A stretch of 64,000 nucleotides of DNA from a virus (lineage: Duplodnaviria; Caudoviricetes): the IMG/VR virus record IMGVR_UViG_3300050159_000048. One strand, given 5' to 3'. Of this stretch, positions 38,413 to 47,979 are shown one piece after another (position 1 is the stretch's first letter; each line of letters opens with the position of its first letter). The notes under the pieces were generated by a model that did not search any database, was not told where the DNA came from, and was given only the letters and a program-made list of their open reading frames with translations. The translations under genes and the position numbers were made by a program.

Positions 38413-38434
38413 GTGGGGTGTGTAACCGGCAATA

Positions 38435-38460
38435 AAAAAGCCCGCCGAAGCGGGCTTTTT
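38435..38460 (-). terminator. Intrinsic terminator after major capsid gene
   Basis: AAAAAGCCCGC-TTCG-GCGGGCTTTTT. Confidence 0.9.
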
Positions 38461-38475
38461 GAGTGCTTGATGTGA

Positions 38476-43756: not shown

Positions 43757-43775
43757 GAGCTTGAAAACGCTGGCG

Positions 43776-46155: not shown

Positions 46156-46944
46156 ATGTCCAACACCAATCCACTACTAGCCAAAATCCGCATCCCCGGT
46201 GCTACATTCCGTCTGCCATCCCAAGGTCTATTCTACGAGGACGGAGAACTTGCCGAAGGCGTGACGAAGGGTGAAGTTGAGGTGTATCCGATGACCGCTG
46301 TGGATGAAATTGTGCTGGCGACACCAGACAAGCTGCTGTCTGGCCGTGCAATCATGGAGATTTTCGCTCGGTGCATTCCACAAGTGATCAAGCCTGAGAA
46401 GCTGTTGACGCGTGATGTGGACTTTCTGATGGTGTGTTTGCGCTCTGTGTCGTTTGGCGATGCGATGGAAGTCACATATACCCACGATTGCGCTAACGCA
46501 AAGACCCACACATTTAGCGTCGACATTCAACAAATGATCCGTGAAACCAAGGTAGTTGACCCAACGTCAATTAACCAAGAATACACGTGTACGGTACCAA
46601 ATGGTCAGATTGTTACCCTGAAGCCACTGACGTACGACAATGTGATTGAGTTGTATCAAACAACTGCTCTAATGAAAGAGGACGAGCTCAGCATTAATGA
46701 GGCGGAGCAGCTGGTGTTGGACACGCTGTCCAACGTGATTCGACGCGTCGATGACGTGACGGATAAGCAGCAAATCCGTGAGTGGGTTAAGTCCATCCCG
46801 CTTGGGTGGAAGCGCAAGATTGAAGGTGCGGCACAAATGGTCAGTCAGTGGGGTGTGGATTTCACATCACGCCAAAAGTGTCCTGATTGCGGTGAGGAGG
46901 CCCACGTCCAGGTATCTGCAAATCCAGTAAGTTTTTTTTCATGA
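46156..46944 (+). CDS. gp26-like baseplate hub/tail assembly protein
   Basis: FRLPSQG.FY, VYPMTA.DEI.L.TPD.L..G, D.D..MV..R..S.G, C-terminal CPDC; AAGGAG RBS. Confidence 0.8.
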   Translation: MSNTNPLLAKIRIPGATFRLPSQGLFYEDGELAEGVTKGEVEVYPMTAVDEIVLATPDKLLSGRAIMEIFARCIPQVIKPEKLLTRDVDFLMVCLRSVSFGDAMEVTYTHDCANAKTHTFSVDIQQMIRETKVVDPTSINQEYTCTVPNGQIVTLKPLTYDNVIELYQTTALMKEDELSINEAEQLVLDTLSNVIRRVDDVTDKQQIREWVKSIPLGWKRKIEGAAQMVSQWGVDFTSRQKCPDCGEEAHVQVSANPVSFFS

Positions 46945-47168
46945 CCCTCCGATCTGGAACGATTGAGGAGAAGCAGCAAATGTTCTCCTCAATGGTCAAT
47001 GACCGGAGGCGTATTATCAAATCGATCATTCAACTGGTGTATTTCATGCGCGGAGCGGTTCAATACGAAACCATGATGTCCATGTCGTCATTTGAGCGAA
47101 GTATGGTAAGTGAGTTCGTGGAGGATCGGCTCGAGGTGGAATCGAAGAAGATGTATCCGCAATACTAA
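46941..47168 (+). CDS. gp51-like small partner; possible -1 frameshift extension of gp26
   Basis: LVYFMRGAVQYETMMSMS..ER; ATGA overlap preceded by a T8 run. Confidence 0.7.
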   Translation: MTLRSGTIEEKQQMFSSMVNDRRRIIKSIIQLVYFMRGAVQYETMMSMSSFERSMVSEFVEDRLEVESKKMYPQY

Positions 47169-47496
47169 GCCAGCTCCACGCAGGCATCATAGAGAGACCG
47201 GCTTGGCAGCCGGAGAGATTGTTGAGTTCGGTACCCTTCACTCAACAATCTCTAGCGGTGAAGTAACGCGGTTAAAGGGAATTATCAATCCCTGCCCCGC
47301 GTTTTCGTAGCTGATTGGAAGTACCTCACGGTTCACAGAAGTGAACAATTGTATGAAAAGTGGCCATAACTCCCAAGGTGGTCAACTTTGGTGGGCTCTA
47401 TACCACAGGCTCGTTAGTGCGGCTCCACGCACTCTGTTCCTACACCGGTGGGAGAAGGGTATCACCACCTGACGTTTCTAGTTATACTGTATTGTT
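47169..47496. ncRNA. Candidate structured ncRNA (family and strand unknown)
   Basis: ~330 bp gap with at least 7 stems, including a 14-bp perfect stem 47214-47253; no credible ORF. Confidence 0.5.
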
Positions 47497-47979
47497 TCAG
47501 TCCGGCATGCGCGCAATCCAATACGCGTCGGTCAAATCCGTGAGACCGGTAGTCTTCTTAAAGCCTGCGTCTAAAAACTTCTGTCGAACGTCGTCTGAGA
47601 GTGCTTCTATCATTGCCTTTTTATCAGCCTTGCCACTTCCTGTGGCCTTCTTTTTCACCGAAGTAGGTGCGTATTCCTTGAATACGATAGTGGGGTGCTC
47701 GTAAGCAACAAGATTGACGATCGTAAACAACAATCCAGCCAAGTCTCGAGTTGCATCCCCTCTGATTCCGAAAGCCAATCCTTCTGCTTTAAGCATCGTT
47801 GGATTATGTTTCTTGATCAGTTCACAGATTTTCTTTGCGGTTGACAACGCACGGGCGTATGTAGTGTCCGTTTTTTCGGTTGTAAACCGTCCGAATTCTT
47901 CCATCTGCTGTGATTCAGTGTTCCACAATACGTATCCACAGCTAGTATACGATTGGTCAATTCCCAGTACAAGTGCCAT
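47497..47979 (-). CDS. ruvC: RuvC-like Holliday junction resolvase
   Basis: LGIDQS, catalytic E (KAEG), PTSVKK.ATGSGKADK, D..DA. Confidence 0.85.
   Translation of the reverse strand: MALVLGIDQSYTSCGYVLWNTESQQMEEFGRFTTEKTDTTYARALSTAKKICELIKKHNPTMLKAEGLAFGIRGDATRDLAGLLFTIVNLVAYEHPTIVFKEYAPTSVKKKATGSGKADKKAMIEALSDDVRQKFLDAGFKKTTGLTDLTDAYWIARMPD

Follow-up and report, generated by a model that had tools for sequence, protein, structure and literature searches.

Introduction

Several groups of described RNAs resemble the element analyzed in this study. The GOLLD and ROOL RNAs, as well as the manA and wcaG RNAs of T4-like cyanophages, are likewise phage-borne stand-alone RNAs with multiple helices and tertiary contacts, and they too were found by comparative genomics and are orphan in function. 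GOLLD, ROOL, and OLE form RNA-only homo-oligomers (PMC12286853). The RNA considered here differs from the GOLLD/ROOL type in the lack of an Rfam match at E <= 10, in its smaller size (the whole unit spans about 330 nt and its core about 225 nt), and in being placed at the 3′ terminus of a protein-coding unit, not near tRNAs. It is also unlike the stable RNAs rnaC and rnaD of T4, which are tRNA-like and located at the end of a tRNA cluster: the tRNA/tmRNA search found none in the window, that is, the whole 64,000-nt stretch analyzed, and no tRNA genes occur in 14 related loci.

Short, Hfq-dependent bacterial sRNAs that act by seed pairing, such as CpxQ and SroC, are derived from 3′ UTRs. The present RNA would be similar to them in starting within the upstream ORF or at its end, sharing the 3′ end of this gene, and being independent of the encoded protein, but it is large and tertiary-structured and has no evident seed. 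The omega-RNAs of TnpB and IscB likewise originate from the end of a gene for a RuvC-fold nuclease. Those nucleases, however, are about 350-500 aa long and combine a split RuvC domain with WED, REC, and Zn-finger or HNH inserts, whereas the gene adjacent to the present RNA encodes a 160-aa Holliday-junction resolvase, and RNA and nuclease gene occur independently of each other. Finally, the aptamers of the lysine, purine, and cobalamin riboswitches are multi-helix structures locked by loop-loop contacts. The present RNA shares with them covarying helices around invariant junction strands, a kissing loop, and a segment with two alternative partners. Unlike these riboswitches, it is mostly located outside 5′ UTRs, and no terminator or RBS-sequestering output platform was identified for its alternative folds. 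Literature searches found no description of this RNA.

Results

Genomic Setting of the Element

The window is part of an IMG/VR virus record of 174.5 kb with an estimated completeness of 50%, and its source is an uncultured T4-related giant phage. On the plus strand of the locus, a gp26-like baseplate hub gene is followed by a gp51-like ORF, whose homologs have an equivalent location in relatives; ruvC, gp46, and gp47 converge on them from the minus strand. The interval 47169-47496 exactly separates the stop codons of the gp51-like ORF and ruvC. According to a crude gene call, and as proposed in the initial annotation, no other true intergenic gap in the window is as long, since the seemingly bigger gaps at 60.7-63 kb fall within an open-ended giant ORF. 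All stems listed in that annotation were recovered, namely CCGGCT/AGCCGG, the 14-bp stem at 47214-47253, AACGCGG/CCGCGTT, GTTCAC/GTGAAC, AGTGCG/CGCACT, and GGTGG/CCACC, and a scan of 47169-47496 agrees with it that no simple terminator, that is, no GC-rich hairpin with a U/T-run, is found there. The minimum free energy of the gap is below that of 100 out of 100 dinucleotide shuffles on both strands (z = -3.45). The promoter scan of the gap yielded one sigma70-like match, within chance expectation.

Two other elements noticed at the outset did not hold up so well. The 10-nt direct repeat at 47173 and 47422 is indeed present, but only 6 nt of it are retained in the closest relatives, and chance alone would produce a repeated 10-mer in roughly one of 16 sequences of about 370 nt; as the repeat is not conserved, it is ruled out as a target-site duplication or an att core. 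Repeated 7- to 10-mers are found in many members of the family at about chance frequency. The possible long-range pairing CAGCT..ACG/CGT.AGCTG is disrupted without compensation in L016 and L037, two paralogous copies in one genome (here and below, L-numbers are labels of related loci).

Nothing was found to support an origin of replication or a primer RNA, the identity also suggested for this interval beside the gp46/47 recombination genes. The flanking genes converge instead of diverging, the sequence is not rich in A and T (GC 0.49-0.50), the cumulative skew has no inflection at 47.2 kb, and the constraint acts on RNA base pairs.

The Rfam search called for in the initial annotation matched no RNA family: the whole window has no matches at the gathering score (Rfam 15), and in the region 46900-47700 at E <= 10 nothing falls on the element, the one match being an unrelated snoRNA outside it. 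The RNA in five related loci has no Rfam match at E <= 5. The Polynucleobacter-1 model (RF01718) has no match in the window, nor at E <= 1 in records G000, G001, G002, and G004.

A Family of Structured RNAs

The DNA search of cultured phage records found nothing similar to the gap. Relatives were therefore gathered via RuvC homologs in a large protein collection and then via the contigs encoding them, and further loci came from pattern scans of viral, metagenome, and genome collections. In six contigs of the window's own phage the gap is 100% identical. The contigs with RuvC homologs share the gene order and have a gap of nearly constant length (310-330 nt), and the gene maps of the closest RuvC relatives, P0002 (73%) and P0004 (63%), show a matching gap of about 330-565 nt. 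In the alignment of relatives whose RuvC is 56-62% identical, invariant blocks alternate with stems that change on both sides. These blocks are GGAACAGA, UAACGAGCC, AAGUUGACC, CUUGGGAG, GAGGUAC..UUCC, and GCGGGG.AGGGA; of them, AAGUUGACC is invariant in five RuvC-linked sequences gathered ahead of any pattern search. The identity of the core to relatives is 68-77%, just modestly above the 64-71% of the flanking ruvC and gp26 genes at the DNA level, and thus the signal lies in the pattern of conservation, not in its amount.

The covariance model R1 (215 positions, 34 pairs), built from a MAFFT alignment, matches 20 distinct instances in metagenomic phage contigs with scores from 214 down to 29.5 bits, the lowest one belonging to a divergent form in L003. 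The match in the window (Table 1) is the sole copy in its 174.5-kb record; neither a second copy of the RNA nor a NadM-Nudix gene (see below) was found in this record, which is about 50% complete. R1 did not confirm two candidates from the pattern scans, L040 and the Solirubrobacterales MAG locus L039, which were discarded as chance pattern matches.

Covariation in the intervals of relatives, proposed in the initial annotation as a check, is strong. Compensatory changes occur at 29 of 37 pairs, several of them coming from single lineages, and the junction strands are invariant, so that a conserved core of the aptamer type is combined with covariation. Pair cells are paired in 96.6% of cases, a value inflated by the fitting of the alignment to the model, compared with 75.9% when the 3′ partners are shuffled and 36-45% in slid controls, which the fitting does not affect. 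None of 500 shuffles attained the observed value on any measure. No reading frame is consistently open among the relatives, and indels are not multiples of three; in the window, L023, L028, and L034 there are stops in all six frames.

We infer that the RNA is read on the minus strand, which is also the ruvC strand, because two nearly invariant U.G pairs of the fold 1 hairpin in the 3′ domain (15/18 and 15/17 sequences; Table 1) would become A/C mismatches on the plus strand. The RNAalifold consensus energy is -30.2 kcal/mol for the minus and -26.8 kcal/mol for the plus strand, and in every instance the orientation of the RNA is that of its upstream gene.

Of the three identities first considered for the element, that of a novel phage noncoding RNA is supported: the interval is conserved and covaries strongly, a loop-loop contact covaries as well, no frame stays open across the relatives, and Rfam gives no match. 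By this comparative evidence, it is a real, conserved, structured noncoding RNA of a new uncatalogued family.

Table 1. Coordinates of the RNA, its structural parts, and the flanking genes in the window
Feature	Position	Strand	Remarks
ruvC	47497-47979	-	160 aa; PF02075, E = 5e-10, residues 4-122; phrog_159, E = 3e-27; upstream same-strand neighbor of the RNA
P0 hairpin (ACUG/CAGU, loop AAACAAUA)	47486-47501	-	Encloses the ruvC stop TGA 47497-47499
Conserved linker AUAACUAGAAACGUCA between P0 and core	47470-47485	-	nAUAACUAGAAAC or AAAUAGAAAC in most instances
Conserved core matched by R1	47263-47475	-	207.8 bits, E = 2e-66
Stem A (GGUGG/CCACC) and loop A	47447-47469	-	6/7 pairs compensatory; loop motif A.ACCCU conserved
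P3 (AGG/CCU) around invariant strands GGAACAGA and UAACGAGCC, with stem B (AGUGCG/CGCACU)	47407-47441	-	
Stem C (GUGG/CCAC)	47391-47406	-	4/4 pairs compensatory
Invariant single strand AAAGUUGACC	47380-47389	-	
Loop-D hairpin (CC/GG) with UUGGGAG	47364-47378	-	GGG 47372-47374 is the kissing partner
Stem E (GUUCAC/GUGAAC)	47331-47346	-	4/4 pairs compensatory
Fold 1 hairpin UUCC..UC.GC/GC.GG..GGGA	47289-47320	-	Compensations: G-C to A-U in L016 and L021; U.G to A-U in L031
Fold 2, nested stem of the initial annotation: AACGCGG/CCGCGUU around GGGA/UCCC	47265-47303	-	Mutually exclusive with fold 1
14-bp perfect hairpin, loop GAAGGGUACCGA	47214-47253	-	Long hairpin here in all well-aligned instances
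Second hairpin CCGGCU/AGCCGG	47198-47213	-	Small hairpin of other sequence (CCGUAG..CUGCGG) there in L016, L021, and L037
3′ tail to the stop codon of the gp51-like gene	47169-47197	-	Motif ..AUCCGGGCAUGGAGCUGG.. common to the paralogous copies L016 and L037
gp51-like ORF	46941-47168	+	75 aa; convergent neighbor, 3′ of the gp26-like baseplate hub gene (PF12322)

Core Architecture

The conserved body of about 225 nt consists of P0, the linker, five covarying helices, and a three-pair kissing contact, and includes about 60 invariant nucleotides, mostly unpaired. It is followed on the 3′ side by about 100 nt of hairpins that are fixed in position and variable in sequence. In stem B, all six pairs covary and 99% of the cells are paired.

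The kissing helix joins CCC 47457-47459 of loop A to the GGG of loop D. It can form in all 20 sequences, and all three of its pairs are compensated in two lineages (CUU/AAG in L034 and UCC/GGA in L059), the compensation thus coming from two of the 20 sequences. For another candidate tertiary contact, the pseudoknot AGUUGA/UCAGCU (UCAGCU at 47308-47313), both strands are invariant, no covariation is seen, and there is one A/A mismatch in L031. Kissing between loop A and the loop of the 14-bp hairpin was rejected, as the 8 bp possible in the window are reduced to 4 bp or none in relatives.

The 3′ Domain

In the last third of the RNA, the G-rich segment ACGCGGGGCAGGGA can pair with either of two partners, UUCC..UCAGC on its upstream side (fold 1) or UCCC..CCGCGUU on its downstream side (fold 2). 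The structures that RNAalifold returned for this part in two runs differ but are equal in consensus energy (-30.21 and -30.20), and most instances are predicted to form a local hairpin that, as in fold 2, sequesters this segment. A C-to-U change within the segment, seen in L016 and L021, is matched both by a G-to-A change upstream and by a new downstream partner, CUACG/UUACG. The 3′ third thus looks like a two-state switch in the predicted structures, although it could be an artefact of the folding program. The arms of the fold 2 hairpin are not followed by U-runs.

The stem sequence of the long hairpin downstream of the core is not conserved, and its loops have motifs of the GNGA..CGAA type. 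In L016 and L021 this hairpin is flanked by U/A runs, like a two-way terminator; there are none in the window, where the 14-bp stem is directly followed by CCGGCU. Since the copies within one contig are homologous through the hairpins to the tail, the whole unit is about 330 nt long, as drawn in the initial annotation. A canonical terminator formed by the GCCCGCUUCGGCGGGC hairpin and a U-run is located after a structural gene both in the window (38431-38464, minus strand) and in L028 (13612-13645), and hence the phage uses ordinary terminators elsewhere.

In the 3′ halves of L016, L021, L037, and L059, the pentamer GGUAC or GGUAU recurs in the core, on either side of the long hairpin, and in its loop. 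L016 and L037 have four copies of GGUAC and lack GGUAU, and L059 has four copies of GGUAU and lacks GGUAC, a concerted variation of the word.

The 5′ End of the RNA

P0 occurs in 12 of 18 instances. Its stems covary (ACUG, GCUG, CCUG, GUUG, and CGCUG) around the constant loop AAACAA, and in the ruvC-adjacent copies the TGA stop is located inside P0. A covarying helix has to be transcribed, and the transcript is therefore expected to start inside or upstream of ruvC. Given the covariation of P0 and its overlap with the ruvC stop, the RNA probably forms the 3′-terminal part of the ruvC transcript and would thus be of the 3′-UTR type.

The linker resembles the phage late box CATAAATA, always with at least one mismatch. 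We considered TATAACTA, located between P0 and the core, as a late promoter and rejected it as the main reading, since it always deviates from the box and the covarying P0 sits upstream of it.

On the minus strand of the window there are 13 late-promoter-like sites (e.g., at 43757, 40938, 38413, and 28229), 12 of which have the box CATAAATA, usually with a C-rich sequence just upstream. The late box of T4, TATAAATA, is unlike the box of this phage.

Genomic Contexts

In every instance the RNA abuts the stop codon of a same-strand ORF, which is ruvC, an endonuclease VII-like, HNH, or Metallophos gene, or an ORF of 62 or 67 aa. In 12 of 18 contexts, which are not independent since most instances were inherited at one syntenic place, the RNA lies between ruvC and the convergent gp51 and has no same-strand gene downstream. 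The other arrangements are diverse. In L020 and L067, an endonuclease VII-like gene is inserted between ruvC and the RNA; in L034, the RNA is located between an HNH gene and a helicase gene; and in L033, between a Metallophos gene and a gene encoding a CoaE-like kinase. Two diverged copies of the RNA are found in the complete 350-kb genome G001 and also in the 252-kb contig NODE_7. In both, the second copy immediately precedes a NadM-Nudix gene, these two genes being 64% identical, and in G001 a copy lies within a cluster that holds another gene similar to NMN-adenylyltransferases. In L020, a single RNA copy is located between ruvC and the NadM-Nudix gene.

In L037, L059, L020, and L033, a promoter-like sequence separates the RNA from the following same-strand gene, and thus the RNA appears to end a transcription unit rather than to lead one. 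This intervening sequence, together with the absence of the RNA upstream of a 47% identical NadM-Nudix homolog in another phage, weakens the case for a 5′-UTR riboswitch of the NadM-Nudix gene.

The NadM-Nudix promoter itself is sigma70-like (TTGACT, 17 nt, TAnnAT; L037:300-395, L059:1860-1940, and L020:4440-4535). Downstream of it, the 5′ UTRs of the NadM-Nudix operons of three related phages share a conserved hairpin whose loop is AUAGA and whose stem shows compensatory changes (GAACUGG/CCAGUUC, GGAAUGG/CUGUUCC).

The RNA and ruvC can occur apart from each other. According to a speculative suggestion made from the window alone, it might be an RNA partner of the adjacent RuvC-fold protein in the manner of TnpB. 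Contrary to this suggestion, the RNA is found without ruvC in L028, L033, L034, L037, and L059, and ruvC is found without the adjacent RNA in L002 and L005-L009 (43-47% identity) and in L064 and L066 (53-54%). The same annotation described RuvC as a plain 160-aa resolvase, and the domain matches agree.

In L064 (RuvC 54% identical), a different ORF-free, hairpin-rich gap of 414 nt (1972-2385) lies between ruvC and a helicase gene. R1 does not match this gap, which may hold another structured RNA at the equivalent place.

Mobility

An unrelated carrier of the RNA is L028, a 35-kb, about 95% complete phage with genes for an HK97-type terminase, scaffold, capsid, and adaptor. Its copy is 83% identical to that of the window over 223 nt, the shared block extending from P0 to the end of the core, and the sole other similarity between L028 and the window is a generic terminator hairpin of 34 nt. 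The copy in L028 indicates that the RNA is horizontally mobile and has been passed between unrelated phages. Subtypes of the RNA are shuffled between the ruvC and NadM loci across genomes.

Endonuclease VII-like or HNH genes occur directly after ruvC or before the RNA at L020:3503-4066, L067:1944-2561, L034:3942-4652, and L066:2018-2545. The inserted genes are probably free-standing homing endonucleases, which are known to settle beside conserved sequence. The nuclease adjacency is most simply explained by homing endonucleases settling by a conserved sequence and, in the case of ruvC, by inherited synteny.

Several assemblies of the window's phage break inside the RNA core, 151-201 nt past the ruvC stop (L012 at 3684 and L015 at 1110), and one of the breaks ends a stretch of about 39 nt identical to the L028 copy. 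These breaks suggest that a second copy, or the 35-kb phage, co-occurs in the same samples.

Discussion

The reading that we favor, though tentatively and with our judgment almost evenly balanced, is that of an RNA that derives from the 3′ end of the upstream unit but acts on its own, probably in trans. The interval is a gene-sized module of the minus strand encoding a structured noncoding RNA. This RNA would be transcribed as the last part of the ruvC unit and perhaps trimmed afterwards, and the terminal hairpins could close the unit against the convergent baseplate-hub genes. In the least certain step of this scheme, the RNA would work autonomously and not with RuvC. Its locked core may present the invariant GGAACAGA, UAACGAGCC, and AAGUUGACC to a partner, a protein or a small molecule, and the 3′ third might flip between its two exclusive folds, thereby coupling binding to output. 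A role in trans, on a host or phage factor, is preferred in view of the exchange of the module between unrelated phages and of its maintenance as two diverged copies per genome.

The constant position of the RNA after a stop codon is accounted for just as well by a role in cis at the 3′ end of the upstream mRNA. It is possible, if somewhat unlikely, that the element has no trans function at all and instead stabilizes the upstream, often nuclease-encoding, mRNA or controls its decay, and insulates adjacent units. Such a role would agree with the invariable location directly after a same-strand stop codon, with the overlap of P0 and the stop, and with the convergent gene or promoter-like sequence that comes after the RNA. 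However, a stabilizer or terminator requires neither about 60 invariant unpaired nucleotides nor a covarying kissing loop, and ordinary terminators with a GC hairpin and a U-run are available to this phage. An element serving its upstream mRNA is also difficult to reconcile with the fact that the module reached an unrelated phage intact, where it follows another ORF, and with the maintenance of two diverged copies.

The aptamer-like core with kissing loops, and the exclusive folds sharing one G-rich segment, raise the question of a metabolite switch, which would control read-through into nucleotide-cofactor genes, or of a ligand sponge. In four of the six contexts with a same-strand gene downstream, this gene is indeed NadM-Nudix (L037, L059, and L020) or the CoaE-like kinase (L033), and the additional NMN-adenylyltransferase-like gene in the G001 cluster is in line with the same idea. 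Nevertheless, we consider a riboswitch-like function unlikely: the RNA has no downstream same-strand gene in 12 of 18 contexts and is thus not located in a 5′ UTR there, a promoter-like sequence and a separate 5′-UTR hairpin intervene between the RNA and the gene, the 47% identical NadM-Nudix gene elsewhere does without the RNA, and the arms of fold 2 lack U-runs.

Still more doubtful is a self-contained mobile bistable sensor, responsive to a ligand or a protein, which would be exchanged by unrelated phages of one host community and parked behind nuclease and NAD/CoA-type units. If this were true, the RNA could sense or buffer an adenine-nucleotide cofactor during the NAD+-depleting defense of the host.

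The nuclease neighbors could also be explained if the RNA were a remnant or a target of a mobile element, similar to a group I intron or to an RNA associated with homing endonucleases. An HNH or endonuclease VII-like gene does directly precede the RNA in L034, L020, and L067, and RNA subtypes have been swapped between the ruvC and NadM loci of different genomes. We regard this as very improbable, since the RNA is located between the stop codons of convergent genes and not within a gene, Rfam, including its models of group I and group II introns, gives no match at E <= 10, the whole fold is under strong purifying selection in contexts free of homing endonuclease genes, and free-standing homing endonucleases beside a conserved sequence account for the adjacency without an intron. 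Finally, although most instances of the RNA do adjoin a RuvC-fold gene at its 3′ end, we give hardly any credence to a guide or scaffold RNA of a TnpB/IscB-like RuvC-fold nuclease, or to an origin or primer RNA, as this RuvC has a resolvase domain alone (PF02075 and phrog_159 being the sole matches), and the conserved scaffold fills the gap to both gene boundaries with no variable segment standing out at a constant position.

Phage genomes have been mined chiefly for proteins. Here, an RNA of about 330 nt with a structural sophistication like that of riboswitches and ribozymes has no entry in the catalogues. The presence of two copies in giant T4-like phages and the transfer to an unrelated small phage suggest that this RNA is useful in itself, possibly in host takeover or counter-defense, and the family, being compact and well constrained, lends itself to structure determination and ligand screening.
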